A DNA stretch of 64,000 bases, taken from positions 32,001 through 96,000 of the IMG/VR virus record IMGVR_UViG_3300042337_000526. The stretch is one strand, 5' to 3'. The position numbers and the translations under genes are program-made. This document shows positions 15,830 through 52,765 of the stretch, piece after piece. The notes beneath the pieces are model-generated. The model saw only the letters and a list, made by a program, of their open reading frames with translations. It had not been told where the DNA came from and made no database searches. The stretch's first letter is position 1. Each line of letters starts with the position of its first letter. This DNA comes from a virus.

Positions 15830-16036
15830 ATGATTCCGAATAAAAAAATAAAATCAGATTGTTTTAAATGTACACAAGGACCAACACCAACACCAACAAG
15901 AACTCCTAGACCAACAATTACTCCTAGCAGAACGCCAAAACCAACAATTACTCCTAGTAGAACAAATAGGCTTATTACTCCAACACCAAGTTCTAGCTAT
16001 AATATAAAAATAAAAACTTTAAATTTCATACCATAG
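15830..16036 (+). CDS. Short Thr/Pro-repeat protein with a KIKSDC leader
   Basis: AAGGA RBS. It has the same leader and TPTRTPRPT start as the downstream giant proteins. Confidence 0.55.
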   Translation: MIPNKKIKSDCFKCTQGPTPTPTRTPRPTITPSRTPKPTITPSRTNRLITPTPSSSYNIKIKTLNFIP

Positions 16037-16077
16037 GATATGTATGATACTACAATAATCTTTGAGATTTTAATGTT

Positions 16078-17853
16078 ATGAAAATAAAATCAGATTGTTG
16101 TGGTGGAAAATGGGTAGTCAATAAAACACCAACACCAACCCAAACACCCAAACAAACAGTAACACCAAGCATAACAGTTACAGCAACGCCATCGTCAATA
16201 AGCGGTGACACTCCTACTCCAACGCCAAGCATAACAGTTACAGCAACGCCATCATCAACAAGCGGCGACACTCCTACTCCAACGCCAAGCATAACAGTCA
16301 CAGCAACGCCATCGTCAACAAGCGGCGACACTCCTACTCCAACGCCAAGCATAACAGCCACAGCAACGCCATCATCAACAAGCGGTGACACTCCTACTCC
16401 AACGCCAACGATAGGCAGTACTCAAACACCAACCAGAACAACAACCAACACTAACACACCCACCAAAACAATCATAAACACAAAAACGCCAACACCAAGT
16501 GTCACGCCAAGCATTAGTTTAAGCCCTACTGTTACTCCCACTATAACAAACACGCCCACTATAACGGTTAGTATTAGTCCAACAAAGAGTACTACTCCAA
16601 GCGTAACTCCAACGGTCACTACTACGGTAACAAACACCCCAACAGTAACTCCAACCATAACATCGAATTTTGCGCAACCAATAAACATAAAATGCATAAC
16701 CGATATGGGCAAGCAGTGGGGAATAACCTATAATGTAAGAGATTATTCTGTTGTGTATGGGCTAGATTCTGGAGCACAATGGAGAAACATAGCTTCTGAA
16801 GAATATCCTTATTCAATAGTTCAAACAGAAACAACCATAAAAAACTCAATTGATTTTGAAATAAATGAACCATTAATGATATTTGTCGCACAGACCACAA
16901 GTTCTTCTGATGGCATAACTGATAATTACATATTAAAACAAAAAACAATTAATAAAAATAATAAAAACATATTAGTTTTAGATTGTATAGATAAAAATAA
17001 AACACAAATTGAAAAATCAGATAAATTTAATTCTAAATATGCTCCTGCTAATTTTAATGTTTTAGTATATGGTTCTATGTGTGTTGTAGATTGGTCCTAT
17101 CCAATTGAAGCACCTAGTCGATTTGATACACCTAACTTGTATAGGCTGAATATGTCTAGCACAAATGATCTTTCAAAGATAAAACAAATCGACTCGTGGC
17201 TAACTGGAGATTTTGATCTAGAAAATAGTTTTATTATTAAACCGGGTGGTGGAGGTTTGAGCGTTCTTACATCGTTTACTGTTTTTTGTAAAAGGCCTGA
17301 TTATAATCCTAAAGCGTCTTTTATAACTGTGTTTGCAGACTATAATAGGCCTGTTGATTTAAACATACAAGATCCTTGGGATATGAATAATAATAATGGC
17401 AAAATTTGGCCTGCGGGGTCTTATGCTATTATATGGGGCGATAGTTCACCTTATGATACTGTATCAACGATTGCCCCAAAATTGACAACGGCCCCACTTA
17501 CATCGTACGATGGCAGGATTAGGATGGTGTGGAATGGATCATCATACAGAGTTGCTCAAATGATAAACATAAATGGAGTATGTTTAGATAATGATTTTAA
17601 TTATTATAGAATTGGAATGTATAAATATAATGCAAGTACTATGGAATATGATTTTTATAAAGCTGTTAAAATTAGAAAAACAGTATTAAATCAGATTTAT
17701 AGCTATGAATTTGACAACATTCTTAACGGACTTTATAAGGTGTATGTCTTTGCAGACTATAGCGTGGATGATGGTGCGTTTGGTGATAATATTGATCCAT
17801 TTTCAATAACATCTACCATAGCTTCTAATGTTTTTATTTATTCAGTAATATAA
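16078..17853 (+). CDS. Mucin-like Thr/Pro-repeat protein with a globular C-terminal region (putative virion fibre)
   Basis: KIKSDCC leader, about 185 aa of TPT repeats, then about 390 aa of unique sequence. Confidence 0.8.
   Translation: MKIKSDCCGGKWVVNKTPTPTQTPKQTVTPSITVTATPSSISGDTPTPTPSITVTATPSSTSGDTPTPTPSITVTATPSSTSGDTPTPTPSITATATPSSTSGDTPTPTPTIGSTQTPTRTTTNTNTPTKTIINTKTPTPSVTPSISLSPTVTPTITNTPTITVSISPTKSTTPSVTPTVTTTVTNTPTVTPTITSNFAQPINIKCITDMGKQWGITYNVRDYSVVYGLDSGAQWRNIASEEYPYSIVQTETTIKNSIDFEINEPLMIFVAQTTSSSDGITDNYILKQKTINKNNKNILVLDCIDKNKTQIEKSDKFNSKYAPANFNVLVYGSMCVVDWSYPIEAPSRFDTPNLYRLNMSSTNDLSKIKQIDSWLTGDFDLENSFIIKPGGGGLSVLTSFTVFCKRPDYNPKASFITVFADYNRPVDLNIQDPWDMNNNNGKIWPAGSYAIIWGDSSPYDTVSTIAPKLTTAPLTSYDGRIRMVWNGSSYRVAQMININGVCLDNDFNYYRIGMYKYNASTMEYDFYKAVKIRKTVLNQIYSYEFDNILNGLYKVYVFADYSVDDGAFGDNIDPFSITSTIASNVFIYSVI
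16161..16408 (+). repeat. 60-bp tandem repeat, about 4 copies (TPTPTPSITVTATPSSTSGD)
   Basis: Successive 60-nt lines 16201-16380 are nearly identical. Confidence 0.95.
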
Positions 17854-17861
17854 GGGCTGGT

Positions 17862-20800
17862 ATGAATAACAAAATTAAATCAAATTGTTGTGACTGTGTA
17901 ATAATTTCTCCAACACCAACACGCACACCAAGACCAACAGCAACACCAACAAAAACCCCAAAACCAACAGTAACTTCAAGTCGAAAACTTAAAGTTCCAA
18001 CTCCAACGCCAACCACTTCGCTGAGAGCAACAGTAACGCCAACAGCCACGCTAGGAGCAACAACAACACCAACAACCACGCTAAGAGCAACAGTAACGCC
18101 AACAGCCACGCTAGGAGCAACAACAACACCAACAACCACGCTAAGAGCAACAGTAACGCCAACAACTACGCTAAGAGCAACAACAACGCCGACAACCACG
18201 CTAGGAGCAACAACAACGCCAACATCAACATTGCAAAGAACAGCAACTCCAACTCTTACGGTCACACCAACAAAAACAACCGAATCATTGACATGTCCAC
18301 CTATAGATTCATGGCCTATGGGTATGGTTGGCTATCAAAGAGAGGCTGGTATGTCCATTGTTGGTTTAACATCTGGAGCAATAAGAACATCGAGCACAAC
18401 AAGAACAGAAGGACAATATCAATGGACATTTATCAAGGCTTTAGGACCTAATCCACAACAAGGAACAATTACTTCCGCAGAATTATTTGTTAATGATGCT
18501 GGCAGTAATAATATTCCGTTCATTATTGGAGAACGCATAACAGTATATACTATGGCTCTAAATATACAGAATCATAACGGAACATACTATTTACATAACT
18601 ATAGAATTATTGATTCGCCAGATGGTCAATTGGGAGAGATAACGGTATCTTGTAGTCAATTAAGTCAAACGACTTTAACACCAACTCCAACAGCCACGCT
18701 ACAGCAAACACCAACTCCAACAGCCACGCTACAGCAAACAGCAACTCCAACAGCCACGCTACAGCAAACACCAACCCCAACTAAAAGATCACAGTCAGGA
18801 GGAGCATTTCCAGCAGCTCCTTCTAATCTTGTTGCTCTGGAGGGTAACCTAGCAATTGACCTTAGTTGGGATGCTCCGGTCAGTATTAGACCAGGAGATA
18901 CAGGATATGCATTCGCACACAGAGTTAAAGGAGCAGCTAATTGGATATACTATGGTTATAACACTTTAAACGAAAGAAGAAAAATTATCACAGGACTAAT
19001 TAACGATACAGAGTATGAGATAAAAGTTGGAACAACTAGTGGCGGACCATTTGATAATGCTGTATGGTCAGTGCCAATATTTGCTACGCCAACAGCACAA
19101 AATATTCCGCCAACTCCGCTTAATCTAATCGCTCTTGAAGGCAACCAAGCAATTGACCTCAGTTGGGATGCTCCGGCAAGCATTAGGCCAGGAGATACAG
19201 GATATGCATTCGCACACAGAGTTAAAGGAGCAGCTAATTGGATATACTATGGTTATAACACTTTAAACGAAAGAAGAAAAATTATCACAGGACTAATTAA
19301 CGATACAGAGTATGAGATAAAAGTTGGAACAACTAGTGGCGGACCATTTGATAATGCTGTATGGTCGTTGTCAATCTTTGCTACGCCTCGTAGCGGAGGT
19401 GGCGGAGGATCATCGCCCATTAACGGTACTCCTAGTAATATAGATTCAATTATTGTTACTGATACATCACGATCATCCGTTATGGTTTCGTGGACGGTTC
19501 CAGTTAGCGCCGGGAGTTCTGAAATAACAGACTATATACTGGAATACAGTAGTAATAATAAAGCCTCATGGACAACCGCAAGTCGTCCAGCTGGAACAAG
19601 CACAAAAGCTGATATTAATTTAGGAAACGCTGTCTACTTTTTTAGAGTAGCAGCGGTAAATAAAGCGGGACGTGGGCAGTATTCGACAACTTCTGATGGT
19701 CATGCTAAGCCCAGCAAAGTTATTATTCCAACCACAAGACTTAATCCCGTAACAAAGATTTTTATGCTTTTACTAGGCAAAACTAACGACCTATATTTAG
19801 ACGATGATACGGTAGGATTTGATGAGCAACAGAGTTTACAACAAGTATTTAGTAATGCAACCCCTTTTGATGCCATGGAGCGACCCGACCGTTGGTTTTA
19901 CACAGATAAAATAACTCTTGGAAATCCCCCACTTAGATCTCTTTGGAGATTAACAGATGGGAAGACTGTAAATAGATTTTTTAGTATTAATGATATTAAG
20001 GTTGGAATGGGAGTTAGCGCAGCAGGTATTCCGTTCGGCACGACCGTTAAAGCTGTTGATATTTATAATAACAGAATTACTCTTAGCAAAGAGCTTCGTA
20101 CAGGATCACCTAATTTGATACTCACCGGTGGCGGAGATCCTAGTCCGGTAATAATTACTCTACCAGAAGCCGAAAGTAATTTTTATCAGAGTATTTATGC
20201 AACTGACACAACGGTATATGCCGGAACGAACACTGGTTTAAAAATATCTACGTTAGATGGACTTGGTTGGAATACTTTCACTACAGTTAATGGTTTAGGA
20301 AATAATGTAGTTAGAGACGTTTATGTTATTGATACTACTATCTATGCGGCAACCAATGGAGGTTTGAGTATCTCAAATGATAATGGATTAAATTGGACTA
20401 ATTTTACTACAGAAAATGGTTTATCTAGTTCTGTTGTGAAAAAAGTTTTTGTTGATAATAATAAAATTTATGTTGCAACAGCTAATGGGATAAGCATCTC
20501 TAACAATAATGGATTAAATTGGACTAATTTTACTACAGCAAATGGTTTGGGTAGCAATGAAATAAGAGATATTCAAATTATAAATAATAAAATTTATGCA
20601 GCAACCACCGCTGGGGTCAGTATATCTAGTAACGATGGATTAACATGGACTAATTCGACTACTTCTAATGGTTTAGGAAGCAATAGTATTCAAAAAATAT
20701 ATTGCGTACAGAATACTATATATGCAGCTACGGACAATGGACTAAGTATTTCTACTAACGATGGTTCAACTTGGGTTAACCGTAATGAATATGATGGATT

Positions 20801-22241
20801 AGCCGGAAATAAAGTTATAAATGTTTATACTAAAAATAATAAGGTTTATGCATTAACTGATAAGGGTTTTTATGATTCCAGTGACTTAGGTAATAATTGG
20901 AGATATGAAGGATTTGGGTTAAGCTATAATTCAATATATAATTCTAAAATTAAAGATTTTAAAGTAATAAGTACAGAAACCAAAGAAATTCCCAGACTCA
21001 CAGTTTATAGAGGTATTTCAACGAACTACAGAGGTCAGGTCGAAATCTCTTATGATACAGGAGCAACTTGGAAATCAACAGTACTAACTGATATCCAAAC
21101 TTTTAAAGTGATTGACAATTCAATTTTTGCAATTACCGATAAGAATTTATTACTTTCAAATGATGGTGGAGAAAGTTTTAATAGTTATTCTACGCCAGGA
21201 ATTTTAAATAGCAATTTATTTGTTGATAAAACAAAAATTTGTATATCATCTTTAAACGGATTGCATATTTCAACAGATAACGGGGTTAGCTTTAGCACTA
21301 AGACAATGAGTGATGGTTTGGGTTCTAATCTAGTACGAGACGTATATGCATCCGGTAATACTATTTATGCCGCTACTAGTAACGGCTTAAGCTTTTCAAT
21401 AAATAATGGTTTGACATTTGATAATATTTTATCTGATAGTAGTAACCCTAATGATTATAGTCTCTCTTCAAATAATATTCGTCGTGTATATTTAGATACT
21501 GTTAGACGCAGACTCTATATTCAGAACGACAAAGGTATACAAGTTAATGATGGTCCATTAGACGAAAATGGAATACCTTTACTAACTCTGGCTCCTCTGC
21601 TTAATGGAAATTTGCAAATAGAACTATTGAGATGGAGTACATTATCCGACGATACAGGAGAGTTATCAAAAAATTATTTTTATTCACAAAAATGGAGAGG
21701 ACCATATGCATTTTCTCCATCAGGATATTTACCGTACAACGGTGTGCTCAGCGGGACGGTCGATTTTCCCAAAGGAAGACCACAGCCTGTGCCTCCGTTA
21801 ATACCTATAATTAGGGCTACAGCAGTTGATCCATTATATCCATTTGATCCCAATAGCCACATTCCTGCAACAGCCGCAAACTATGCTACGGATTATCCTC
21901 CTCCTGTAATGGGTCCGGTTCCTGCTAAGCCGATAATTCCAATAAATGTAAGATGCTATAAACCATCAACAGCACCCTTATCAGCAGAGGTGTTATGGTC
22001 AACTGATAACTTTAATGACGTAAAAAGTTATTTTGTAGAATATAAAAATATAACACTCCAATCTAATTGGACAAGATATTCAAGCAATATTCCAAAATCA
22101 ACTAATGTTGGTATTTCAAGTTCAAGTGAGTCTTCAGTCAGAATACCAATAAACCACCTACATAAGTACATATTTAGAGTTGGAGCAACCAACGCTAAAG
22201 GACAGTCATTCGTCCAAGAGTCAAATATACTTGATCCATAA
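17862..22241 (+). CDS. 1459-aa mucin-like protein with FN3 domains and an Asp-box beta-propeller
   Basis: KIKSNCC leader, TPT repeats, FN3 motifs (LSWDAP...YEIKV; VSWTVP...YFFRVAAVN), and repeated SxDxGxxW Asp-boxes. Confidence 0.85.
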   Translation: MNNKIKSNCCDCVIISPTPTRTPRPTATPTKTPKPTVTSSRKLKVPTPTPTTSLRATVTPTATLGATTTPTTTLRATVTPTATLGATTTPTTTLRATVTPTTTLRATTTPTTTLGATTTPTSTLQRTATPTLTVTPTKTTESLTCPPIDSWPMGMVGYQREAGMSIVGLTSGAIRTSSTTRTEGQYQWTFIKALGPNPQQGTITSAELFVNDAGSNNIPFIIGERITVYTMALNIQNHNGTYYLHNYRIIDSPDGQLGEITVSCSQLSQTTLTPTPTATLQQTPTPTATLQQTATPTATLQQTPTPTKRSQSGGAFPAAPSNLVALEGNLAIDLSWDAPVSIRPGDTGYAFAHRVKGAANWIYYGYNTLNERRKIITGLINDTEYEIKVGTTSGGPFDNAVWSVPIFATPTAQNIPPTPLNLIALEGNQAIDLSWDAPASIRPGDTGYAFAHRVKGAANWIYYGYNTLNERRKIITGLINDTEYEIKVGTTSGGPFDNAVWSLSIFATPRSGGGGGSSPINGTPSNIDSIIVTDTSRSSVMVSWTVPVSAGSSEITDYILEYSSNNKASWTTASRPAGTSTKADINLGNAVYFFRVAAVNKAGRGQYSTTSDGHAKPSKVIIPTTRLNPVTKIFMLLLGKTNDLYLDDDTVGFDEQQSLQQVFSNATPFDAMERPDRWFYTDKITLGNPPLRSLWRLTDGKTVNRFFSINDIKVGMGVSAAGIPFGTTVKAVDIYNNRITLSKELRTGSPNLILTGGGDPSPVIITLPEAESNFYQSIYATDTTVYAGTNTGLKISTLDGLGWNTFTTVNGLGNNVVRDVYVIDTTIYAATNGGLSISNDNGLNWTNFTTENGLSSSVVKKVFVDNNKIYVATANGISISNNNGLNWTNFTTANGLGSNEIRDIQIINNKIYAATTAGVSISSNDGLTWTNSTTSNGLGSNSIQKIYCVQNTIYAATDNGLSISTNDGSTWVNRNEYDGLAGNKVINVYTKNNKVYALTDKGFYDSSDLGNNWRYEGFGLSYNSIYNSKIKDFKVISTETKEIPRLTVYRGISTNYRGQVEISYDTGATWKSTVLTDIQTFKVIDNSIFAITDKNLLLSNDGGESFNSYSTPGILNSNLFVDKTKICISSLNGLHISTDNGVSFSTKTMSDGLGSNLVRDVYASGNTIYAATSNGLSFSINNGLTFDNILSDSSNPNDYSLSSNNIRRVYLDTVRRRLYIQNDKGIQVNDGPLDENGIPLLTLAPLLNGNLQIELLRWSTLSDDTGELSKNYFYSQKWRGPYAFSPSGYLPYNGVLSGTVDFPKGRPQPVPPLIPIIRATAVDPLYPFDPNSHIPATAANYATDYPPPVMGPVPAKPIIPINVRCYKPSTAPLSAEVLWSTDNFNDVKSYFVEYKNITLQSNWTRYSSNIPKSTNVGISSSSESSVRIPINHLHKYIFRVGATNAKGQSFVQESNILDP
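18030..18240 (+). repeat. 30-bp tandem repeats (TPTxTL[RG]AT[VT])
   Basis: Repeated caacaaccacgctaagagcaacagtaacgc-type units. Confidence 0.85.
18891..19366 (+). repeat. Near-perfect internal duplication of an FN3 domain (297-bp period)
   Basis: 18891-19069 is identical to 19188-19366 (179 bp by direct comparison). Confidence 0.9.
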
Positions 22242-22268
22242 AATATATTTTTAAATTAGGACGATCTG

Positions 22269-24803
22269 ATGGCCAAAATAAATGTTTTTGATAAATCAGA
22301 ACCAGATAAAATTATTCCTAAAAAATCAAAGTTATTTTCTAACTGCTGTTCATGTGTCACGGATGAAAAAGAAGAACCAGTAATTTCGCCAACCCCAACT
22401 TCAAGTGTTGCTATTACTGCCACCTCAAAAGGAATACTAACTCCAACGCCAACCGCAAAAAATATACCAACTCAAACTCCAACAACGAGTATTACTCCCA
22501 GCCCATCATCATCATTAATTCCTTCTAGTCCAACACCAACCTCGAAATTGATAATAACGGCAACACCAACCTCAACATTTAAAATACCTTCTACACCAAC
22601 AAAAACAGCAACGCCCACAAAGAGTATATCACCAACATCAACATCTCAAGCAACCCCAACCCCAACAAAAACAGCAACGCCAACAAAGAGTACAACCCCA
22701 ACCAAAAGTATCACTCCTACCAAAACAGTAACACGAACGCCCACAAAAAAACCAATAATTATTTCATCTCAACCTCTTTTTGACAAATCCTCTTGGTCAT
22801 CTGTGCCAGAACCATATTTAAGCTATTTAAATGAAGCAGCAGATCGATGGTCTAGGTATATAAAATATAATTCAACAACATACCAACTTATAAAAAATGA
22901 TTATGCTAAAAGTAACAAGATATGGAATGGACTAGCCTTAGATTTAACTAAATTTACTTTTTATAATGACGTATCAGTTACGACGATAGCATCATGTGGG
23001 CCGCTTGATGGATATGATTTAGACGATGGAAAAGGAATTAAATTTAATTCATCAACATTTCAATTAAAAATAAATAGTTATTATAGTGGACCATGGGTAG
23101 TAGATGGTAAGACGTATATTTTTAATGATAAAGATTGGATAAACATTATAACGCATGAGCTAGGACATGCTTTAGGTATTGGCATATTTTGGAGAAAAGA
23201 AGTAATATCTTATACAGATGGCGTACCACCAATAAATAATTTATTAGATGGAAGTGTATACACTAACGCTAAAAATGCTTATAATTCTATAACATCATTA
23301 ACTAGAACAAAAATACCACTAGAAAACAGTAGCGAAGACGGCGGCGTCGATGGACATTGGGAAAATTCTTACAGATTTCCATTAAATGGAGAACAAGTAT
23401 ATTATGGTTTATCAAATGAATTAATGGTAGGAGAAGTGTCTCCTGGAGCAACTAGAATAATTTCATCTTTAAGTATTAAAACTTTAGTTGATTTTGGTTA
23501 TGAAGAAGTATTTCCAGGGTCTAGCGAGGGAAAACCAACAGTAATATCTTCTGCTTTTAATCCATTCGGGTTGATGTCTATAGAAAATAATTTATCAACC
23601 ATTAAAATGAATTGCTCTTGTGAGTATAAACCAATAATTAAAAAACTAGCAAAAGATGATAAACAAAAAATTAATGTTGTAATAAAAAATACAGATTGGA
23701 ATATAAAAACTGAATGTGAACCAAGGTTATTTTCTAATTGTTGTGAATGTTCTGATCCTTTTATTCGTCCAAGTAGAACACCGCGGCCAACAATTACTCC
23801 CACAAAAACCCCGAAACCAACAACATCTCCAACCAGAACACCAACTAAAACAGCAACGCCAACAAAAAGCATCACACCAACTAAGACAACAACGCCAACC
23901 AATAGCATTACGCCAACTAAAACAACGACACCAACTAAAACAGCAACACCAACAATCACAGTAACGCCAACAGCCACGGTAACACCAACGGTCACAGTAA
24001 CGTCAACTAAAACAGCAACGCCAACAAAAAGCATCACACCAACTAAGACAACAACGCCCACCAATAGTATTACGCCAACTAAAACAGCAACGCCAACTAA
24101 AACAGCAACGCCAACAAAAAGCATCACACCAACTAAGACAACAACGCCAACCAATAGTATCACGCCAACTAAAACAGCAACGCCAACAACCACAGTAACT
24201 CCAACAGTCACAGCAACGCCAACAGTCACAGCAACGCCAACAGTCACAGCAACGCCAACAACCACAGCAACGCCAACAGTCACAGCAACGCCAACAACCA
24301 CAGTAACTCCAACAGTCACAGCAACGCCAACAGTCACAGCAACGCCAACAGTCACAGCAACGCCAACAGTCACAGCAACGCCAACAACCACAGCAACGCC
24401 AACACTCACACCAACGCCAACAGTCACAGCAACACCAACAGTTACAATAACGGCCACAAATACGCTAACTCCATCAACAACACTAACAGCAACTCAAACA
24501 AAAACTCCTACTCCAACCCTAACTCCAACGTCAACAGATACTACTCCCGTATTGCCAACTTTTGTTGCTTGTGATAATATAAATAATATAATAGATAATC
24601 CATGGGATCCTGCTAATTCCTGCGATGCAGCAATCGATAATGGCCTAGTGTTTAATATAACATTACCTGTCAATAATTATATTTATGGAATTGATGATAC
24701 TATTGTTTTCTTAGCAACCTATAGTCAAATACAACCAGACACATTAATTAATATGGTAGCAAGCTTATATACAAGATATTACACTCCAAAAATATGTGAA
24801 TAA
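22269..24803 (+). CDS. Mucin-like protein with a central leishmanolysin/M8-like zinc metalloprotease
   Basis: HELGHALGIG (HExxH), a downstream GHWE and NELM (Met-turn), flanked by two TPT tracts that are each preceded by LFSNCC. Confidence 0.8.
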   Translation: MAKINVFDKSEPDKIIPKKSKLFSNCCSCVTDEKEEPVISPTPTSSVAITATSKGILTPTPTAKNIPTQTPTTSITPSPSSSLIPSSPTPTSKLIITATPTSTFKIPSTPTKTATPTKSISPTSTSQATPTPTKTATPTKSTTPTKSITPTKTVTRTPTKKPIIISSQPLFDKSSWSSVPEPYLSYLNEAADRWSRYIKYNSTTYQLIKNDYAKSNKIWNGLALDLTKFTFYNDVSVTTIASCGPLDGYDLDDGKGIKFNSSTFQLKINSYYSGPWVVDGKTYIFNDKDWINIITHELGHALGIGIFWRKEVISYTDGVPPINNLLDGSVYTNAKNAYNSITSLTRTKIPLENSSEDGGVDGHWENSYRFPLNGEQVYYGLSNELMVGEVSPGATRIISSLSIKTLVDFGYEEVFPGSSEGKPTVISSAFNPFGLMSIENNLSTIKMNCSCEYKPIIKKLAKDDKQKINVVIKNTDWNIKTECEPRLFSNCCECSDPFIRPSRTPRPTITPTKTPKPTTSPTRTPTKTATPTKSITPTKTTTPTNSITPTKTTTPTKTATPTITVTPTATVTPTVTVTSTKTATPTKSITPTKTTTPTNSITPTKTATPTKTATPTKSITPTKTTTPTNSITPTKTATPTTTVTPTVTATPTVTATPTVTATPTTTATPTVTATPTTTVTPTVTATPTVTATPTVTATPTVTATPTTTATPTLTPTPTVTATPTVTITATNTLTPSTTLTATQTKTPTPTLTPTSTDTTPVLPTFVACDNINNIIDNPWDPANSCDAAIDNGLVFNITLPVNNYIYGIDDTIVFLATYSQIQPDTLINMVASLYTRYYTPKICE
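23810..24530 (+). repeat. 18-bp tandem repeats encoding TPT[KV]T[AV] hexapeptides
   Basis: Many copies of acgccaacagtcacagca and acgccaactaaaacagca. Confidence 0.9.
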
Positions 24804-26697
24804 AAGGAAATTTATGACTCAAGATCTGTACTTATCAACTAAAATAACAATTAAAATACCAAATGATCCAATATTTAGTGGCACATATACTTTTAGTAGA
24901 AATCAGTCTACTAACAAATGGGAATTAATGACCGGGGCAAGTCTTCCATTGTACGGCCCAGGGTGGCCAGATCCTAATGTTAACACCCTTTTATTTGACA
25001 CTTCTCTGCCAAAGTATTCGCATGCTGGTAATCCCCTTAATAATACATATCTTATTAAATTAAATTCAGTTTTTGACGCTGGCGCATCGCCTTATTATCC
25101 AGGATATCTTGAAACATTGGCAAAATATAACGACCTAAGTCCGGAAGCAGGATTCACTTATACAAGTGGATTTGCTTGGCCAGCACATTTTATTATGACA
25201 GCCATAAAACCACCGTGTTCCAGTTGCTCTGATTATCAAAGCGGATATGGAGATGGGGCCAACAGACCATCAGGATCGGGACACAGACTTGTTGTTGGTT
25301 TTTCTCTTCCTTTAAGATATAGAGAAATAACTCAAAATTGGATAGTTGTAGACTACCCTGCTCAAACAGAACCAAACAGATATCATGCATTAAGCGGTAT
25401 TAATAATAGTAATGTTAATACATTTAATTATATAACAGGAGTGCCCCCAATAATAAGTAACTCAAATGGGGATTTCTGTCAGATAAAAGACTTTAAAACA
25501 ACAAATAATCCACTGTTTGATCCCAATCCCAATAGCTTATTTGATCTGTCTGTATCTGCTCCTACTTCAGATTTACAACTGGTATGTACCGGAATTAAAG
25601 ATATTGGATTTGCTTTTAGGTCCAGTGGAAGCGGATTAGGGTATGCTAGTCCATCTAATATTGAAACTAATATAATAGACGGTTGGGGAGACTTTAGAAA
25701 TAACTTTTATGTTGCGTCAGATTCATATGCTACAGATACATATGATGGTAATGGTAGATATTTTAACGGAGCTTTTTATGATAAAGTTAGTGTAGACGCA
25801 TCTGTAAAATTTTACAGTTCTTGCAGAGTAGGAGTTGCCTGTGAAGCAATCATACCTGATGCTCCCCATAGTGTTACTGGAGTTTTGTGTGTTACTAGCT
25901 CTCAAATTTTTGCAAACTCAGAATGTAACGGGAGTGAAATAGATAATTCTTATATAAATAATTACAACTCTAACACTAATTTAAATACTGTTGATGTTTT
26001 TTTTATTGGACCATCTGGATTCTGTCCTTGCATAAAAAGACCATCATCCTCGCCTCAGGACTATATCATATATGAGTCTGTAAACCAAGAGACTTTAAAG
26101 GTTAAGATACCATATGCCGGATCATTACAGTATAACAGTCTTCTGTCTTGGATAAAGGATGATTTTGCGATTATTAAGCCTTATGCCGGGATTGGATTAT
26201 TAAAAAATCTTTCAAATATAAATAATTTATGTTATAATCAATATCCTGTTATTGATGTTTCTTGGAATTTTCAGTCTAATGCTACTAGTGGAAGCATAAT
26301 TATTAAACCAACAGACATAAGAATAAAATATCCAAGAATATCTGTAACGGGGGCAAATATTAGCGTATTAAATGGCGACTACTCTTGGGCTGATAATCAT
26401 CAGTCATTTATTAAGTATGTTTACGATGCCGGTGGCTCTCAGATTATTAATTCTTTAATTATTAAAAAAGTTAATGAATCATATTTAAGCAATACATACA
26501 ACTATGTGCTAGGTTCTGGATCTTTTGCTAATTGTAATGATAAAATACCATACTCATTTAAATCTTTATATTTTTTACCTAATCTTTCACCCGGAGTTTC
26601 TCCGTTATTGAATACTCAACAATATCATTTATGGTCGAATAATCCTCCAACAACCTACGGTCTTAGTCCAGTACCGTCATCTATTGCTAAATTATGA
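24796..26697 (+). CDS. Large hypothetical protein, probably structural
   Basis: 633 aa, S/N/P/G-rich with several Cys pairs and no PT tract. Confidence 0.7.
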   Translation: MNKRKFMTQDLYLSTKITIKIPNDPIFSGTYTFSRNQSTNKWELMTGASLPLYGPGWPDPNVNTLLFDTSLPKYSHAGNPLNNTYLIKLNSVFDAGASPYYPGYLETLAKYNDLSPEAGFTYTSGFAWPAHFIMTAIKPPCSSCSDYQSGYGDGANRPSGSGHRLVVGFSLPLRYREITQNWIVVDYPAQTEPNRYHALSGINNSNVNTFNYITGVPPIISNSNGDFCQIKDFKTTNNPLFDPNPNSLFDLSVSAPTSDLQLVCTGIKDIGFAFRSSGSGLGYASPSNIETNIIDGWGDFRNNFYVASDSYATDTYDGNGRYFNGAFYDKVSVDASVKFYSSCRVGVACEAIIPDAPHSVTGVLCVTSSQIFANSECNGSEIDNSYINNYNSNTNLNTVDVFFIGPSGFCPCIKRPSSSPQDYIIYESVNQETLKVKIPYAGSLQYNSLLSWIKDDFAIIKPYAGIGLLKNLSNINNLCYNQYPVIDVSWNFQSNATSGSIIIKPTDIRIKYPRISVTGANISVLNGDYSWADNHQSFIKYVYDAGGSQIINSLIIKKVNESYLSNTYNYVLGSGSFANCNDKIPYSFKSLYFLPNLSPGVSPLLNTQQYHLWSNNPPTTYGLSPVPSSIAKL

Positions 26698-34933: not shown

Positions 34934-34947
34934 GTGGAGAACAAGCA

Positions 34948-39199: not shown

Positions 39200-40093
39200 T
39201 TAAGCAATATTTTGATTGTCTATAAATAATATGCAATTATTAAAACTTTGTCTCATTAGCGGAACAATAGTTAGCATATTGCCAGGGTACGATACGAAAT
39301 AATTACATTGAGATGCTATATGAGTAATTGCTAAAAATTTTTTAAGATAATCTATTTTGGACATATTGTGCCGATTCATAAAATCAGCATTAGAAACATT
39401 ATATAAATGACTATGGAATCCTTTATTGGTGTCGTTAGATGTCGGCAACTCATTTAAGACTATTATTCGGTCATCAATAGTTTTTATTATAGCAATTTCT
39501 TCTAATATAGAAACATCATCAGTTTGAAAATATATTTTTTTAATATTAGTATTATCTAATTGTTTAATGTAATCAATAGTATTAGGAATACGTGATTCTG
39601 TTACTTTGTCTGTCTTTCTTGCCCATATGAAAGCAGACATACTATAGTTTATATTATAAGTATTCAAAATATTTTCTATCTCATATTTTATGTCATTATT
39701 AATGGTAAAAAATTTGTTATATAATTTTATAAGTATAGGCAAGAGTTCTGTTAGTTTTTGTTTATTGAATCTATGACTTAAATCAGACAGTCCATAATTA
39801 GTAGGATGCAAATTGTTTACAACTAGGTTTGCTTCTTCTTCGCTAATCTCAAATGAGTTTTGTTGTGTTTGAAAAAAATCATTATAAAAATCATAATTGT
39901 GTTCGTACTCATTAAGACACAATCTAATATTAGATACTCTATAGGAAGTTTGTTTTAACATGCAAACACCAAATAATGACATAATAATATTAGAATATAA
40001 TCCATATGGTCTATTAATAGTTAGGGTTTCAGAAGCAATATCATAAGAATTATTGCCTCCCCATAAGCTAAAATCATTAATATTGTCTATCAT
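39200..40093 (-). CDS. FUT8/NodZ (GT23)-like fucosyltransferase
   Basis: ARKTDKVTES (compare FUT8 VRRTDKVGTE), IYFQTDD (compare VYLATDD) and ASQCNYFV. Confidence 0.7.
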   Translation of the reverse strand: MIDNINDFSLWGGNNSYDIASETLTINRPYGLYSNIIMSLFGVCMLKQTSYRVSNIRLCLNEYEHNYDFYNDFFQTQQNSFEISEEEANLVVNNLHPTNYGLSDLSHRFNKQKLTELLPILIKLYNKFFTINNDIKYEIENILNTYNINYSMSAFIWARKTDKVTESRIPNTIDYIKQLDNTNIKKIYFQTDDVSILEEIAIIKTIDDRIIVLNELPTSNDTNKGFHSHLYNVSNADFMNRHNMSKIDYLKKFLAITHIASQCNYFVSYPGNMLTIVPLMRQSFNNCILFIDNQNIA

Positions 40094-45358: not shown

Positions 45359-46006
45359 ATGAAAAAAGTTATTAGTTTTAGTTTGTGGGGTGATAATCCT
45401 AAATATACAATAGGTGCTATAGAGAATGCTAAATTAGCACAAGAAATATATCCAGGGTGGGATTGTTATTTTTTCTTAGGATCATCTGTTACTGATAACA
45501 TACAAGATAGACTATTGTCTATTCCTAATGTTGTTTTATTTTATAAGGACCATCCTGGAGATTGGAGTGGTATGTTTTGGAGATTCGAAACCTCTTATGA
45601 TTTAGAGGTTGACATTTCTATTTTTAGAGATACAGATTCCAGATTAAGCTTAAGAGAAAAATATGCTGTAGACGAATGGATACAGTCGGACAAAACTTTT
45701 CATATTATGAGAGATCATCCCCATCATGGATTTCCTATTTTAGGAGGTATGTGGGGATATAAATCCAATAATAAATATCCAATTAAAGAACTATTAGGTT
45801 CATTCAATAAAAATGATAGATATGGCACAGACTATGAATTTTTTTATAATTCACTGTATCCATTAATAAATGATGACAAAGTGGTTCATGATCCCTTTTT
45901 TGATAAAATAGATTTTCCACAACCAAGAGATGGAACAGAATTTGTAGGCGATGTATTTGACGAAAATAATATTAGACATCCAGAATACCATAATTATATA
46001 ATATGA
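45359..46006 (+). CDS. Putative glycosyltransferase (uncharacterised GT-A-like)
   Basis: ISFSLWG, GMFWRF, FRDTDSR (DxD) and HIMRDHP. Confidence 0.65.
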   Translation: MKKVISFSLWGDNPKYTIGAIENAKLAQEIYPGWDCYFFLGSSVTDNIQDRLLSIPNVVLFYKDHPGDWSGMFWRFETSYDLEVDISIFRDTDSRLSLREKYAVDEWIQSDKTFHIMRDHPHHGFPILGGMWGYKSNNKYPIKELLGSFNKNDRYGTDYEFFYNSLYPLINDDKVVHDPFFDKIDFPQPRDGTEFVGDVFDENNIRHPEYHNYII

Positions 46007-46581
46007 ATATTTACAATATTTCAAAAAGAGACAATATATGTCAATACATAAACACACTGAAAGACCCAATCATTTGCGAAGTTGGAACAAGAAAAGGTGA
46101 ATTTTTTGATAAACTATTTACATCAAATTGCTCATTAGGAGTAATGGTTGATATATGGACGGATACTGGAAATCTATATCAGAATGACAATACTTATACT
46201 CAAATAGATTTGAATGAACAATATAGATATGTCTTTACTAAATTTTTAAACCAGCACAATATTAAAATAATTAGAGAATTTAGTCATATTGCTAGTACTT
46301 TTTTTCCAGATAATTTTTTTGATTTTATATACATAGATGCTGATCATAGCAAAGAAGGATGCTATAAAGACCTGACTTGCTGGTATCCAAAAGTTAAAAA
46401 GGGTGGTATAATTTCCGGTCATGACTACATATCAAAAGAAAAAACTATAATATATGGACATACAGTTGAATTTGGAGTTATAGAAGCCGTAAAAGAGTTC
46501 CGTGAACTGAATAATATTACAGATAATAATTTTCACTTAACAAGTGAAGAATATGCAACTTATTTTATTATTAAATCATGA
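46003..46581 (+). CDS. Class I SAM methyltransferase (Methyltransf_24-like)
   Basis: EVGTRKG, YIDADH and GGIISGHDY. Confidence 0.85.
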   Translation: MNIYNISKRDNICQYINTLKDPIICEVGTRKGEFFDKLFTSNCSLGVMVDIWTDTGNLYQNDNTYTQIDLNEQYRYVFTKFLNQHNIKIIREFSHIASTFFPDNFFDFIYIDADHSKEGCYKDLTCWYPKVKKGGIISGHDYISKEKTIIYGHTVEFGVIEAVKEFRELNNITDNNFHLTSEEYATYFIIKS

Positions 46582-47270
46582 CCACAACACCTCGTAGAAT
46601 TTTTTGTATATGGTCTGGGGATAATGAGATGTCTGATAATAGAAAAAAATGTTTGGAACTAATAAGACAAAATTCACAGACTGTTGTTGATCTAGTAACT
46701 CCTGCTAATTTATCAGATTGGATAAAGGATCCACTACATGACTCTTATGATTATCTCAGTTTAACACACAAAGCAGATTATTTACGATGCTACTTGATGT
46801 ATCACTATGGTTCAGGATATTGCGATATTAAACCCATATTTTTTAGTTGGCAACCATATTTTGATATTCTAGAGAATAGTTTCTTTGATTTTATAGGATA
46901 CTCAGAACTAAGTCCCCTACACATAGCATCAGATATCAAAGAAATACAATCATCTTATAGTCGCTTGTGTGGATGCTGTCACTTTATATTTAAACCTAAG
47001 AGCAGTTTTGCAGCACAGTGGCTCAGTAGTGTTAATACAATTCTAGATAAGAAAATTCATCTTTTAAAAAAATTTCCTGGAACATACCATCCTAGAGCAA
47101 TCTTTGGAGGAGTTCATCATCCAGAGATAGATAATCTATATAAAGATTCCCAATACCCGTTATGTTGGAACGAAATACTTGGTCAAGTTATACATAAATT
47201 AATGTATAATAATTTTGGTGATTATACATCTGGTATGCCTTATGTCAATTTAACCTCTCAATATAGATAG
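46578..47270 (+). CDS. GT32-like glycosyltransferase
   Basis: IFCIWSG and HKADYLRCYLMYHYGSGYCDIK. Confidence 0.7.
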   Translation: MTTTPRRIFCIWSGDNEMSDNRKKCLELIRQNSQTVVDLVTPANLSDWIKDPLHDSYDYLSLTHKADYLRCYLMYHYGSGYCDIKPIFFSWQPYFDILENSFFDFIGYSELSPLHIASDIKEIQSSYSRLCGCCHFIFKPKSSFAAQWLSSVNTILDKKIHLLKKFPGTYHPRAIFGGVHHPEIDNLYKDSQYPLCWNEILGQVIHKLMYNNFGDYTSGMPYVNLTSQYR

Positions 47271-47277: not shown

Positions 47278-47931
47278 ATGTCAATCAGCTTATGCATAAC
47301 ATCTTATAGTCAAGACTACTCTTTAGTTTATGGTCTATTAGAAGAATTTAAGAAACAAATATTACCACCATCAGAAATAATTTTCTATTGCAGTGATGTC
47401 ATAAGTGTTGAAATGCCAAAGTTTTTATCAATAAAATCATGCAATATTCCTATACATACAATATATAGCTCTAAAAGAACCAATCAAGCCACCGCTAGAA
47501 ATATATCTGCTAAAATATCAAGTTCTGAATATGTAATGTTTTTTGATGTCGATGATATTCCGCATCCTATGAAAATAAAGATTACAACAGATATTTTAAA
47601 TAAAACACAAGCAGATTTTATGCTTCATAATTATCATGAAATTAATGAATCATCTAATATATTTGAGCAGATACCACTTGATGTTGATTTATACCCTTTA
47701 AATGAAATAGATAAAAATTCTACTAATGTGGTATGCGGAGATCACTACATCCATCATGCCCATATCTCTGTGAAAAGATCAATATTTGAAAAAATAAACT
47801 TTAATGAATCTATGGAATACTACAGAAGAGAGGATGGTAAATTTTGTCAAGACTTAATAATAAATGGATATTCTGGAGTTTATTGTCCTATAAAACTTGT
47901 CAATTATACTCCGTCATATCTTAGAAAATAA
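47278..47931 (+). CDS. GT2 family glycosyltransferase
   Basis: ARNISA, MFFDVDD and REDGKF. Confidence 0.75.
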   Translation: MSISLCITSYSQDYSLVYGLLEEFKKQILPPSEIIFYCSDVISVEMPKFLSIKSCNIPIHTIYSSKRTNQATARNISAKISSSEYVMFFDVDDIPHPMKIKITTDILNKTQADFMLHNYHEINESSNIFEQIPLDVDLYPLNEIDKNSTNVVCGDHYIHHAHISVKRSIFEKINFNESMEYYRREDGKFCQDLIINGYSGVYCPIKLVNYTPSYLRK

Positions 47932-48995: not shown

Positions 48996-49736
48996 ATGCC
49001 TGATAAAAAATATAAATGTTCATCTTTCTGCTCACTATACAAAGGACAAAAATTTATTCAAGGCTATGTGGAGGATATGCTCAAGCAATCAGTATTTACT
49101 GATATTGAATTCGTTTTTTTGGATTGTAATTCGCCAGAGAATGAAAAAGATATTATAGAACCATTAGCTCAAAAATATGAAAATATTAAATATTTTAAAT
49201 TAGACTCTGATCCTGGTCTATATCCGGCTTGGAATATCGCTATTAAAAAATGTTCTGCTGATATAATTGGGAATTGGAATATTGATGATAGAAAAAATGC
49301 TAATAGTTTTGAGATATTATTAAAAGCTTTTGAAAGAGACCCTGGGCTAGATTTAGTATACGGAATTACTTATGTTTCAACAGAAGCTAATGAAAAATAT
49401 GAAAATAATAATTATCAACATATATATCCGTGCTTACCTCATTCTTTAAATAATCTACTGGTAAATAACAGTCCACACTGTATGCCGTTATGGAAAAAGA
49501 GTTTGCACGATAGATTTGGTTTCTTTGACGAATCATACAAAACGGCATCAGATGGAGATATGTGGTTGCGTTCTTGCGTCGGAGGTGCTAAGATATCTAT
49601 GGTCAACCATCCGGTTGGCTTGTACTACCACAACCCACAAGGTCGATCAACCGATCCTAAAACTATTGTGGAAATGGTTGCGGAAGTTCAAACTATGAGA
49701 CAAAAATATAAAGAGTATTTGAGTACCAATGAATAA
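48996..49736 (+). CDS. GT2 family glycosyltransferase
   Basis: FLDCNSPEN, GLYPAWN, NWNIDD and ASDGDMWLR. Confidence 0.8.
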   Translation: MPDKKYKCSSFCSLYKGQKFIQGYVEDMLKQSVFTDIEFVFLDCNSPENEKDIIEPLAQKYENIKYFKLDSDPGLYPAWNIAIKKCSADIIGNWNIDDRKNANSFEILLKAFERDPGLDLVYGITYVSTEANEKYENNNYQHIYPCLPHSLNNLLVNNSPHCMPLWKKSLHDRFGFFDESYKTASDGDMWLRSCVGGAKISMVNHPVGLYYHNPQGRSTDPKTIVEMVAEVQTMRQKYKEYLSTNE

Positions 49737-50364: not shown

Positions 50365-50379
50365 TGAGCTGCTAATGCT

Positions 50380-50583
50380 ATGCCTAAATACTATGTTAAG
50401 TCTGGACAGATTAGATTTATAGTAGACTGTACAGATCATTTATGTGCGATATTAGCAGCACTTACTCATTACAAAGGCAAAGGAATAGTTACGGGACCAA
50501 AAATATGTGTTGGTGAACAGGGATTTGAAGATTTTAAAAAATGGAAATGTTACGATACAGATAAGTATCTAAAAGGAATATAA
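50380..50583 (+). CDS. Hypothetical protein
   Basis: 67-aa ORF with a TAATG overlap with guaC. Confidence 0.6.
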   Translation: MPKYYVKSGQIRFIVDCTDHLCAILAALTHYKGKGIVTGPKICVGEQGFEDFKKWKCYDTDKYLKGI

Positions 50584-51710
50584 TGCAAAAAATTATAAAT
50601 GAAATCAAGTTGGACTTTGATGATGTCCTTATTCGCCCAAAAAGATCAACATTAAATAGTCGATCAGAGGTTTGTATCCAGCGAGAATTTAAATTTAAGT
50701 ATTCTCCACGAAAATTATTAGCTGTGCCTATTATGGTAGCTAATATGGATACTGTTGGCACATTTAAAATGGCGGAATCCTTAACAAAAAATCAAACCAT
50801 AGTATGTTTACATAAGCATTATAAAATTAATGAATACGTTGCTTTTTATACTGATCCTAGTATTGTAAATAAAAATCTTGCATTTTATTCAATCGGCACA
50901 AGCCAGACAGATCTGGAAAAATTAACTGAAGTATTCAATCAAATTAAAAAATATAACTATCCTACTCCTAATATCTGTTTAGATGTAGCAAATGGATATA
51001 CAGAACAGTTTGTTAAAGCTGCTCGTAAAATAAGAAATTTATATCCAGAATCAGTTATAATGGCCGGAAATGTAGTAACTCCTGAAATGACAGAAGAATT
51101 AATTATTCATGGTCAGGTTGATATAGTCAAGGTTGGTATAGGATCAGGTAGTGTTTGTACCACTCGTTTAAAAACTGGCGTAGGATATCCTCAATTGAGT
51201 GCTGTGATGGAATGTACGGATGCTGCCCACGGCCTTGGTGGACACGTTTGTTCAGACGGCGGGTGCAAAGTGGTTGGAGATATTTGCAAAGCGTTTGGTG
51301 CTAATAGCGATTTTGTAATGCTAGGAAGCATATTCGCAGGCACAGACGAATGTGAAGGAGAATGGAAATACGAATATTTAGTAGAAGCAGGATCATCTGC
51401 TCCTGGGTTTTGGCAATCTATAGATCCAGAAAACAATAATATAAAAAGAAAAGTATCTTTACAATATTATGGAATGAGTAGTTCGGAAGCGATGGATAAG
51501 CACCATAATGGAGTTGCTGACTACAGAACAGCAGAGGGTAAGTGCGTTACTGTTCCATATAAAGGTATGGCAGAAGAAATTGTTCAAGATATTTATGGCG
51601 GAATACGAAGTGCTTGTACCTATATAGGCGCTAGTAAAATAAAAGATTTTGGTAAAAAAACAACATTTATACAAGTTAACAATACTCATAATAAGATATA
51701 CGAAAAATGA
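50583..51710 (+). CDS. guaC: GMP reductase
   Basis: LDFDDVLIRPKRS, ANMDTVG, LDVANGY, KVGIGSGSVCTTR (catalytic Cys), YYGMSS and EGK. Confidence 0.92.
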   Translation: MQKIINEIKLDFDDVLIRPKRSTLNSRSEVCIQREFKFKYSPRKLLAVPIMVANMDTVGTFKMAESLTKNQTIVCLHKHYKINEYVAFYTDPSIVNKNLAFYSIGTSQTDLEKLTEVFNQIKKYNYPTPNICLDVANGYTEQFVKAARKIRNLYPESVIMAGNVVTPEMTEELIIHGQVDIVKVGIGSGSVCTTRLKTGVGYPQLSAVMECTDAAHGLGGHVCSDGGCKVVGDICKAFGANSDFVMLGSIFAGTDECEGEWKYEYLVEAGSSAPGFWQSIDPENNNIKRKVSLQYYGMSSSEAMDKHHNGVADYRTAEGKCVTVPYKGMAEEIVQDIYGGIRSACTYIGASKIKDFGKKTTFIQVNNTHNKIYEK

Positions 51711-52765
51711 AAATAAATTATTCAAGTCCAATTAATAATACTGGCTATGGCTTAGCATCAATCAATATTTTACGAGAACTAGCACAAATAGCAGACGTAA
51801 CTTATTACCCTATAGGTCAGCCATCTGTTAATAATCAAAATGATCATGATCTAATAATGTCCTTATTAAGAAAAAGGATGGAAGTTGATATTAATGCTAT
51901 TAACTTTAAGATATGGCATCAGTTCGATTTGCTAGAACATATTGGACGAGGTAAATATATTGCTTACCCATTTTTTGAGTTAGACACATTTAATGACTAT
52001 GAAAAAAATAATTTAAAAGTCCCAGACAGCATATGTGTCAGCAGTAAATGGGGTCAGGAAGTTTTATTAAAGAATGGTATAGATTCTGAATCATTCGTCG
52101 TTCCACTGGGTGTTAATAGAAATATTTTTAATAATACCATCAAAAGAACTAGATCAGATGACAAATATGTTTTTCTAAATATAGGGAAATGGGAAGTTCG
52201 TAAAGGACACGATATTCTATTTTCTTTATTCAATGAGGCTTTTCCAGATCAAAAGGATGTTGAGCTATGGATATTAGCATCAGAAAAAACTAATTCATAT
52301 TCATCTCCTGATGAGTTAAAACAATGGAAAAATATGTATGGTTCAGATAGAATAAAATTATTTAACGGATTTGATACTCAAGAAGAAATAGCTCAATTAA
52401 TAGCAGATGCTGATTGTGGATTATATCCATCAAGAGCAGAAGGATGGAATTTGGAACTATTAGAAACCATGAGCATGGGAAAGCCCACCATAGCAACCAA
52501 CTATTCTGCACACACAGAATTCTGCACATCAGATAACTGTTATTTGGTCAATATTGACGAGACAGAAAAAGCTTTTGATGGAAAAGCATTTCAAGGCCAA
52601 GGGAATTGGGCCAAACTGGGAAAGAACCAGATAGAAAATATTATTGAGCATATGAGGTATGTTTATAAGAACAGAATAATGGCTAATCCATATGGAATAG
52701 AAACGGCCAAAAAGTATTCTTGGGAGAATGCTGCTCAACAACTTGTGAGGTGTATTTCTAAGTAG
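51707..52765 (+). CDS. GT4 family glycosyltransferase
   Basis: TGYG, IGKWEVRKGHD and YPSRAEGWNLELLE. Confidence 0.85.
   Translation: MKINYSSPINNTGYGLASINILRELAQIADVTYYPIGQPSVNNQNDHDLIMSLLRKRMEVDINAINFKIWHQFDLLEHIGRGKYIAYPFFELDTFNDYEKNNLKVPDSICVSSKWGQEVLLKNGIDSESFVVPLGVNRNIFNNTIKRTRSDDKYVFLNIGKWEVRKGHDILFSLFNEAFPDQKDVELWILASEKTNSYSSPDELKQWKNMYGSDRIKLFNGFDTQEEIAQLIADADCGLYPSRAEGWNLELLETMSMGKPTIATNYSAHTEFCTSDNCYLVNIDETEKAFDGKAFQGQGNWAKLGKNQIENIIEHMRYVYKNRIMANPYGIETAKKYSWENAAQQLVRCISK

Follow-up and report, generated by a model that had tools for sequence, protein, structure and literature searches.

A candidate mucin-type O-glycosylation system for the Thr/Pro-repeat proteins of an uncultivated T4-like phage

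Why should a bacterial virus encode an enzyme of glycosyltransferase family 60 (GT60), and on what would such an enzyme act? The function of this family is, to our knowledge, known from protists only. The question is raised by a 64-kb stretch of DNA (positions 32,001 to 96,000 of the IMG/VR virus record IMGVR_UViG_3300042337_000526; GC content ~0.33), which was analyzed as a whole and is called here the window; unless another record is named, positions refer to it. A GT60 gene lies there within a block of sugar genes, at a distance of 6-25 kb from five open reading frames (ORFs) rich in Thr/Pro (TP) repeats. An earlier reading of the letters alone (the sequence-only reading) had proposed that the phage glycosylates its own TP linkers. 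We give a probability of roughly 0.68 to the explanation in which GT60, a conserved partner enzyme and a set of accessory enzymes glycosylate the TP-linker appendage proteins of the phage itself.

The assignment of the 429-residue protein to GT60/PF11397 on the basis of its sequence is solid. All four of the motifs from which the sequence-only reading had recognized the family are present (IFIQIASYRD, KGVCWAR, LQLDSHHRF and FHGEEISI), on the minus strand, a detail that it had left unstated. The profile search for which it had predicted PF11397 returned that family (Pfam “GlcNAc”) with E 2.2e-70 and 238 bits (cut-off 21), in two stretches covering profile positions ~1-350; whole-record searches of the relatives gave 126-215 bits, and PHROG 24687 (“glycosyltransferase”) matched the window protein with E 6e-178. 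Among the 40 relatives of alignment A1 (36-87% identity) the conservation of the D106-S107-H108 motif (DxH) is 90% or higher, and H243 never varies; a DxH in place of DxD, together with a C-terminal metal-binding His, marks GT27 and GT60 off from the other GT-A families (PMC7185993). As no solved relative came up when the PDB was searched by sequence, either with the single protein or with a 40-sequence profile, and no GT60 structure was found there, the folds were compared instead. The AlphaFold 2 (AF2) model (pLDDT 94.2, pTM 0.90) has a GT-A core at residues ~12-340 and an extra C-terminal beta domain at ~340-429. The 29 PDB entries that match it best belong without exception to the GT27 polypeptide GalNAc-transferases (ppGalNAc-Ts; Z 19.1-22.4, root-mean-square deviation ~3.5 Å over ~275 residues), for which Foldseek gave a probability of 1.0; other GT-A enzymes reach at most Z 17.6 (VIA Z scores). 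The N-terminus is hydrophilic and has no transmembrane segment; the enzyme should therefore be soluble. Transferase activity is expected by analogy with characterized members such as TcOGNT1, which makes GlcNAc-alpha-1-O-Thr on mucin-like proteins (PMC9472816). A separate observation concerns giant proteins of public metagenomes (P0122, of 2,461 aa, P0123 and P0124), among which up to four tandem GT60 domains are found.

The five TP ORFs that had been noticed between 15.8 and 34.9 kb are indeed there, and together they hold ~1,106 TP-rich residues, counted as those within 20-aa windows holding at least 55% T+P. A DNA pattern for TPT-x-TPT-x-TPT has 37 matches in the window, every one inside 15.8-35 kb, so that the repeats go well beyond chance and are confined to the TP genes; the ORF at 24796..26697, which is situated among them, has no TP tract. 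The possibility that the tracts are wrong-frame artefacts was considered and rejected, as they lie in long coding-strand ORFs whose antisense frames read GV repeats; the comparable tracts of the cultivated Xanthomonas phage XacN1, which fall in annotated coding sequences of matching strand, also count against an artefact.

The four longest TP proteins (591, 1,459, 844 and 2,624 residues; table 1) are candidate acceptors. Pfam gave no significant match for the 591-residue protein. The 1,459-residue protein contains FN3 (fn3 E 6e-17), BNR/propeller-like repeats and DUF6242; that of 844 residues has a zinc-protease-like motif, HELGHALG, and a sole PHROG match, PHROG 15511 (unknown function), over its repeat region; and among the modules of the largest are an RCC1-like propeller (WD40_RLD E 2.7e-94) and a LamG-like domain (Laminin_G_3). 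In four of the five ORFs the first TP tract is directly preceded by a motif K-I-K-S-[DN]-C-[CF]-x-C (LFSNCCxC in the 844-residue protein, which bears a second copy at ~aa 480), possibly an anchoring or metal-binding module; this motif is absent from the largest protein. The TP proteins of a sister clade carry another conserved N-terminal domain (IEIT..PY..CD.T.TYCY).

Do enzyme and repeats keep company in other genomes? We compared 80 partly redundant viral loci of IMG/VR, whose GT60 is 62-86% identical to that of the window, among the matches listed; the GT60 gene of distant loci was located by tblastn. TP tracts occur within 10 kb of GT60 in 62 of the 80, and in 39 a TP-repeat ORF of the same strand ends no more than 300 bp upstream of it. 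The proteins encoded directly upstream are modular, with a common N-terminal domain, a TP linker and diverse C-terminal domains. In the sub-clade of the window the TP gene is 5-7 kb away, on the opposite strand. Two different gene orders thus keep the genes close. Scans of whole contigs (L004, L011, L099 and others being left out) revealed TP tracts in 7/8 long GT60 contigs, and a tract within ~10 kb of GT60 in 5/8. The reverse comparison started from the repeats: contigs retrieved by the TP-repeat DNA pattern alone encode PF11397 in 18 of 46 cases, as against 0 of 35 composition-matched controls retrieved by the same pattern read backwards (Fisher p = 7e-6; in both sets, among the matches listed), and the proportion is 12 of 19 for TP-repeat contigs of at least 90 kb. 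Pro/Ser tracts, (PPS)n and PPAPSPPP..., take the place of TP tracts in two close GT60 loci (L002, 20314-21111; L014, 18751-21252). The composition of the acceptor repeat may differ between lineages.

Cultivated phages give the same picture on a smaller scale. GT60 was found in only four of 50,697 isolate phage records, namely XacN1, Xoo-sp13, CM1 and RAS14. The TP pattern matches 36, 27 and 4 times in the three of these that were scanned (XacN1, Xoo-sp13 and RAS14) and not once in nine GT60-negative large phages (2.67 Mb), among them RsoM2USA, which published trees place in the clade of XacN1 (PMC8504454). XacN1 was reported to have only two glycosyltransferase genes, and its purified virions to contain at least two Schiff-positive glycoprotein bands (PMC5852040). 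One of these two genes, ORF334, is a GT60 homologue, and ORF330 is a homologue of the partner enzyme described below. The TP tracts of this phage, of 100-300 residues each, are located in ORF369/370/372, which immediately follow its tail sheath genes, and in ORF350, which adjoins a structural protein; further tracts occur in the paralogues ORF233-236, in ORF174 and in ORF384.

The association extends to bacteria. TP tracts lie within 10 kb of GT60 in 36 of 80 bacterial loci, which span Gemmatimonadota, Verrucomicrobiota, Acidobacteriota, Planctomycetota, Actinomycetota and several proteobacterial classes. Five whole genomes, each of a different class, have their sole or dominant TP tract ~1 kb or less from GT60: those of a Gemmatimonadaceae and an Opitutaceae member (3.3-3.8 Mb) have a single pattern match each, adjoining GT60; 54 of the 57 matches of Ralstonia sp. 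25C form one tract 1.1 kb from it; and 12/20 and 6/8 of the matches adjoin it in an Acidimicrobiaceae and an alphaproteobacterial metagenome-assembled genome (MAG), respectively. These five genomes were chosen from loci already known to have a neighboring tract, and they therefore gauge the background density of TP tracts (between one and a few sites in each genome, versus 45% of GT60 loci) and not the frequency of pairing. On the Ralstonia sp. 25C chromosome (L380, 9953-15134) GT60 is situated in a type VI secretion system (T6SS) cluster and adjoins a gene for a 954-aa VgrG-like spike protein, whose C-terminus of ~65 Thr-Pro dipeptides is essentially the sole TP tract of the 6-Mb genome.

If GT60 adds a first sugar, what would extend it? 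The start of the GT60 gene is overlapped by 29 nt by the gene of a 553-residue protein, the N-terminal half of which is HtrL/YibB-like; the C-terminal half is of GT-A type, with an invariant E389-D390-D391. Residues 291-552 match GT-A folds with Z 14-16, and over its full length the protein is similar to two-domain glycosyltransferases (LH3, LARGE1, K4CP and Mimivirus R699). This partner is present in 74 of the 80 viral loci, on the strand of GT60 every time, and in 35 of the 80 bacterial ones; among the 50,697 isolate phage records it occurs in exactly the four that bear GT60. In a Vicinamibacterales MAG (L387, 7351-11805) GT60 and the partner's HtrL-like domain are naturally fused in one ORF of 1,484 aa. 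The partner is probably a chain-extending bifunctional glycosyltransferase. The other sugar genes of the window are rare in the related loci or missing from them; the conserved core therefore consists of GT60 and its two-domain partner, with the presumed fucose and methyl decorations specific to the lineage. The constancy of the partner alongside GT60, while the remaining sugar genes vary, is a new observation made here.

The sequence-only reading had counted about ten further sugar genes around GT60 and had supposed that the glycans are elongated, fucosylated and methylated. The count was a fair one, with solid family-level support for ~7 of the genes; elongation finds its support mainly in the one conserved partner, and the Fcl-like, FucT-like, methyltransferase and GT2/GT4 genes are lineage-variable accessories. 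The Fcl-like protein scores 251 bits against NCBIfam GDPFucSynFcl, under the 500-bit equivalog cut-off, and its gene was found in 0/80 of the related loci. The two FucT-like proteins, which have no match in Pfam, NCBIfam or PHROG, are leads from a protein-language-model atlas: feature scores are 0.94-0.96 for both, with TM 0.65-0.79 to NodZ/FUT8_N_cat-bearing clusters for the 297-aa protein and TM 0.63-0.70 for that of 277 aa. The methyltransferase is possibly a sugar O-methyltransferase. A ~285-aa protein common to the sister clade and XacN1 (ORF332) is absent from the window. In XacN1 (L081, 11415-13712), Xoo-sp13 and RAS14, which are Xanthomonas/Stenotrophomonas jumbo phages, a 765-aa carbamoyltransferase gene directly follows GT60; this suggests that the sugar of that lineage is O-carbamoylated, where the window has fucose and methyl genes.

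These observations can be assembled into the following pathway. In the cytoplasm of the infected cell the soluble GT60 would transfer the first sugar, by analogy with the characterized family members an alpha-GlcNAc, from a UDP-sugar to Thr residues of the long TP linkers by which the modules of the phage-encoded giant proteins (15830-24803 and 27059-34933) are connected. The presumably translationally coupled partner (42280-43941) would then extend this sugar, and the Fcl-like enzyme, the two FucT-like proteins, the methyltransferase and the GT2/GT4 enzymes could decorate the chain. The product would be mucin-like, stiffened and protease-resistant stalks with variable distal domains (FN3, propellers, RCC1, LamG, zinc protease), most likely displayed as appendages on the virion. 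That GT60 acts on the phage's own TP-repeat proteins is well supported by gene neighborhood and phyletic comparison, together with one indirect experiment, the staining of XacN1 virions; the donor sugar, the Thr acceptor, the order of the steps and the virion location are what we infer.

A number of observations weigh against this explanation. The viral sample is redundant in part, and the bacterial genomes with nearly unique tracts were a selected set. In the window itself 6 kb separate GT60 from the nearest TP gene, which is on the other strand, and in two complete relatives the nearest TP tracts are 15 to >23 kb from GT60. The co-occurrence in related phages that the sequence-only reading had anticipated is frequent, but one contig (G002, 219 kb, 88% complete) encodes GT60 and the partner and has no TP or STP tract, a situation that the sequence-only reading had named as refuting its proposal; since GT60 can thus occur without TP tracts, the link is not obligate. 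Nor is it so in the other direction, as GT60 is missing from four of eight TP-bearing viral genomes with a completeness of 90% or more. Among the bacterial loci 44 of 80 have no TP tract within 10 kb. Searches of Pfam and PHROGs matched no virion structural family to the TP proteins of the window, whose genes are situated beside replication genes, and the XacN1 paper and its supplement assign the glycoprotein bands to no ORFs and are silent on whether the TP ORFs belong to the virion proteome (PMC5852040). Finally, the donor, the acceptor residue and the anomeric linkage are extrapolated to the phage enzyme from protists.

It is in the matter of location that an alternative fares best. GT60 might glycosylate the TP tracts of proteins that are released enzymes, adhesins or lysis-associated factors, with no mucin coat on the virion. 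We regard this as unlikely, though well worth keeping in mind. The TP genes of the window are flanked by a clamp loader/actin-like gene on one side and by protease genes on the other, outside any recognizable head or tail module; one of their products bears the zinc-protease motif, none has a PHROG structural match, and the TP protein adjoining the Ralstonia GT60 is a secreted T6SS VgrG spike. This spike, however, is itself a homologue of the phage tail spike, and virion fibers typically show the layout seen in the TP proteins, with a conserved anchor motif at the N-terminus, then a linker and a variable distal domain. Moreover, several of the TP genes of XacN1 directly follow its tail sheath genes, and the virions of that phage do contain glycoproteins (PMC5852040).

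An improbable alternative, in our estimation, is that GT60 and its neighbors make some other glycoconjugate (a host envelope polysaccharide or lipopolysaccharide (LPS), a capsule-like layer or a different protein) and that the TP tracts are plain flexible linkers which co-occur with the enzyme by ancestry or habitat. HtrL/YibB-family proteins are known otherwise from lipooligosaccharide (LOS)/LPS loci only (PMC4172580), the accessory glycosyltransferases are as variable as those of surface-polysaccharide loci, and both GT60 without tracts and tracts without GT60 have just been described. Yet the characterized GT60 enzymes that we found described all glycosylate polypeptide (PMC9472816, PMC7185993), and the closest fold is that of the polypeptide GalNAc-transferases. 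Ancestry or habitat cannot account for the finding that, in five bacterial genomes of 3-6 Mb and of different classes, the TP tract adjoining GT60 is the only or the main one, and this near-unique adjacency in unrelated bacteria weakens the plain-linker view, which leaves it unexplained. The difference between XacN1 and RsoM2USA inside one clade also counts against it.

A bolder variant, to which we attach little credence, concerns the partner. GT60 would merely prime the TP linker and the partner would polymerize a repeating disaccharide, making proteoglycans with matriglycan- or glycosaminoglycan-like chains in the prokaryotic cytoplasm. The suggestion comes from its two tandem GT-A-like domains and from the fact that its nearest folds are bifunctional co-polymerases (LARGE1, the chondroitin polymerase K4CP and heparosan synthase). 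Were it true, phage fibers and bacterial proteins such as the T6SS VgrG spike would be true proteoglycans.

Very improbable is a scheme in which a prolyl 4-hydroxylase modifies the prolines of the tracts and GT60 adds GlcNAc to hydroxyproline, as does the cytosolic Gnt1 of the Skp1 pathway, for although the phage GT60 is likewise soluble, the tracts are equally rich in Pro and Thr positions and one relative (G006, the record of L009) has a PF13640 2-oxoglutarate (2OG)-Fe(II) oxygenase, a possible prolyl hydroxylase, 8 kb from GT60 (122733-122951), no 2OG-oxygenase or prolyl 4-hydroxylase domain was detected among the window ORFs scanned with Pfam, PF13640 is absent from the closest relative (G008, 95% complete), from G001 and G003 and from XacN1, and the window tracts are Thr-dominated (T 12-23%, P 6-11%). 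Judging from the oxygenase of G006, some lineages may use such a route.

The nature of the phage can be read from the rest of the window (table 1). Its hallmark genes (rIIA, rIIB and clamp loader) and its relatives, contigs of IMG/VR that measure 131-238 kb and in some cases have direct terminal repeats, identify the source as an uncultivated large T4-like (rII-bearing) phage; a search of the phage collection found no close DNA-level relative among isolated phages. The most similar “bacterial” GT60 genes (57-77% identity) are in bins of Saprospiraceae, Chitinophagia and Cytophagaceae MAGs, which hints at a freshwater Bacteroidota host. The actin homologue encoded between the clamp loader and the TP proteins belongs to Volactin, a family originally defined in archaea. 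Both serine protease genes are kept in 14 of the 20 loci of the sub-clade of the window and in none of the sister clade. The deoxyribosyltransferase-like and GMP reductase/IMPDH-family genes, kept in 9 of these 20 loci, belong to nucleotide metabolism and are unrelated to protein glycosylation.

Table 1. Features of the window discussed in the text; counts of loci refer to the 80 related viral loci.
Position	Strand	Feature	Support or remark
41019..42308	-	GT60-family polypeptide glycosyltransferase, 429 aa	PF11397
42280..43941	-	Two-domain partner of GT60, 553 aa	PF09612 E 1.4e-10
15830..16036	+	68-aa ORF, KIKSDCFKC N-terminus followed by TP tract	TP family, as a short copy or a fragment
16078..17853	+	TP-repeat protein, 591 aa, KIKSDCC	~186 TP-rich residues (aa 14-201); globular C-terminal part
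17862..22241	+	TP-repeat protein, 1,459 aa, KIKSNCCDC	Two TP tracts, aa 11-149 and aa 266-308
22269..24803	+	TP-repeat protein, 844 aa, LFSNCCSC	273-aa tract (aa 496-768); 368 TP-rich residues in all
27059..34933	+	TP-repeat protein, 2,624 aa	Globular modules joined by six TP linkers, 325 residues in all
38363..39196	-	NodZ/FUT8/O-FucT-like protein, 277 aa	Protein atlas; lead only
39200..40093	-	NodZ/FUT8/O-FucT-like protein, 297 aa	Protein atlas; lead only
40090..41049	-	GDP-L-fucose-synthase-like (Fcl-like) short-chain epimerase/reductase	PF01370 E 3.5e-46; directly downstream of GT60
46003..46581	+	Class I S-adenosylmethionine (SAM) methyltransferase, Methyltransf_24	PF13578 E 2.1e-13; 5/80 loci
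46578..47270	+	GT32-like/capsular-synthesis-like, weak	PF05704 E 1.2e-4, PF04488 E 2.6e-3, both sub-threshold
47278..47931	+	GT2 glycosyltransferase	PF00535 E 7e-9; 1/80 loci
48996..49736	+	GT2 glycosyltransferase	PF00535 E 5.3e-15; 7/80 loci
51707..52765	+	GT4 (GT-B) glycosyltransferase	PF13692 E 2.3e-14; 9/80 loci
1963-2625	-	GIY-YIG nuclease	
14816-15817	+	Volactin-family actin homologue	PF25216, E 4e-64; between clamp loader and TP-protein genes
26694-27056	+	HNH nuclease	Between TP-protein genes
34930-35700	+	Trypsin-like serine protease	Between last TP protein and sugar genes
35681-36616	+	Subtilisin-like serine protease	Between last TP protein and sugar genes
49834-50364	+	Nucleoside 2-deoxyribosyltransferase-like	Sub-threshold; within sugar-gene block
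50583-51710	+	GMP reductase/IMPDH-family gene	Within sugar-gene block
53233-53778	+	Endonuclease VII	
In window		rIIA	E 3e-110
In window		rIIB	E 2e-71
In window		Clamp loader	E 2.5e-21
In window		ClpP-like protease and sigma-70 region-4 protein	
In window		tRNA-Leu	One copy

Our reading gives the phage and bacterial GT60 enzymes a concrete job, the cytoplasmic start of mucin-like O-glycans on Thr/Pro linkers, and proposes as targets both phage appendage proteins and bacterial proteins, including a T6SS spike. A literature search for a phage or bacterial GT60/TP-linker system found no publication. If the reading is true, the abundance of Thr/Pro linkers in large environmental phages would be explained, and phage particles would have a second way of becoming glycosylated, unrelated to the first, with a bearing on particle stability, on protease resistance, on adsorption and on the immune recognition of therapeutic phages. 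It would also bear on the origin of eukaryotic mucin-type glycosylation. Cultivable systems are at hand in the Xanthomonas phage XacN1, the Stenotrophomonas phages CM1 and RAS14 and Ralstonia sp. 25C.

How does such a system compare with those already known? Viral glycosyltransferases that modify the structural proteins of their own virus, without the host secretory pathway, are familiar from chloroviruses and mimiviruses, and mycobacteriophages reportedly glycosylate their own virion proteins with phage-encoded enzymes, work said to come from Freeman and coworkers (Cell Host Microbe, 2023). As far as is known, these systems use other glycosyltransferase families and other acceptor sites, and we know of none among them for which a GT60 initiator acting on Thr/Pro tandem repeats has been reported.

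Closer in kind are the protist GT60 enzymes, Trypanosoma cruzi TcOGNT1/2 and the Golgi pp-alphaGlcNAcT of Dictyostelium, which share PF11397 and the DxH motif with the phage enzyme and whose acceptors, like the phage candidates, are Thr-rich, Pro-containing, mucin-like repeats (PMC9472816; PMC7185993). They are, however, Golgi type II membrane proteins, whereas the soluble phage enzyme must act in the bacterial cytoplasm, and unlike them it has an extra C-terminal beta domain and a conserved two-domain glycosyltransferase partner; likeness of activity is presumed by analogy. The Gnt1 of Dictyostelium and Toxoplasma is a GT60 that is soluble and cytoplasmic, as is the phage enzyme, but it modifies one hydroxyproline of one protein (Skp1) and requires a prolyl 4-hydroxylase, whereas the candidate phage acceptors offer hundreds of repeat residues. 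The GT27 initiators of animal mucin-type glycosylation provide the closest solved fold, with a similar DxH metal site and a C-terminal accessory domain, and they act on Ser/Thr/Pro tandem repeats to which the candidate phage acceptors appear comparable. The families are nonetheless different, the accessory domain of GT27 being a ricin-type lectin in place of the phage beta domain, and the donor sugar probably differs as well. The nearest counterpart among cultivated phages is XacN1 (Yoshikawa et al. 2018; PMC5852040), which has a GT60 of 48% identity, a partner of 40% identity and TP-tract proteins like those of the window, with a carbamoyltransferase beside GT60 where the window has fucose and methyl genes. 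Its authors guessed that “phage glycosyltransferases” were responsible for the virion glycoproteins and named neither the GT60 family nor the TP tracts nor the partner (PMC5852040).

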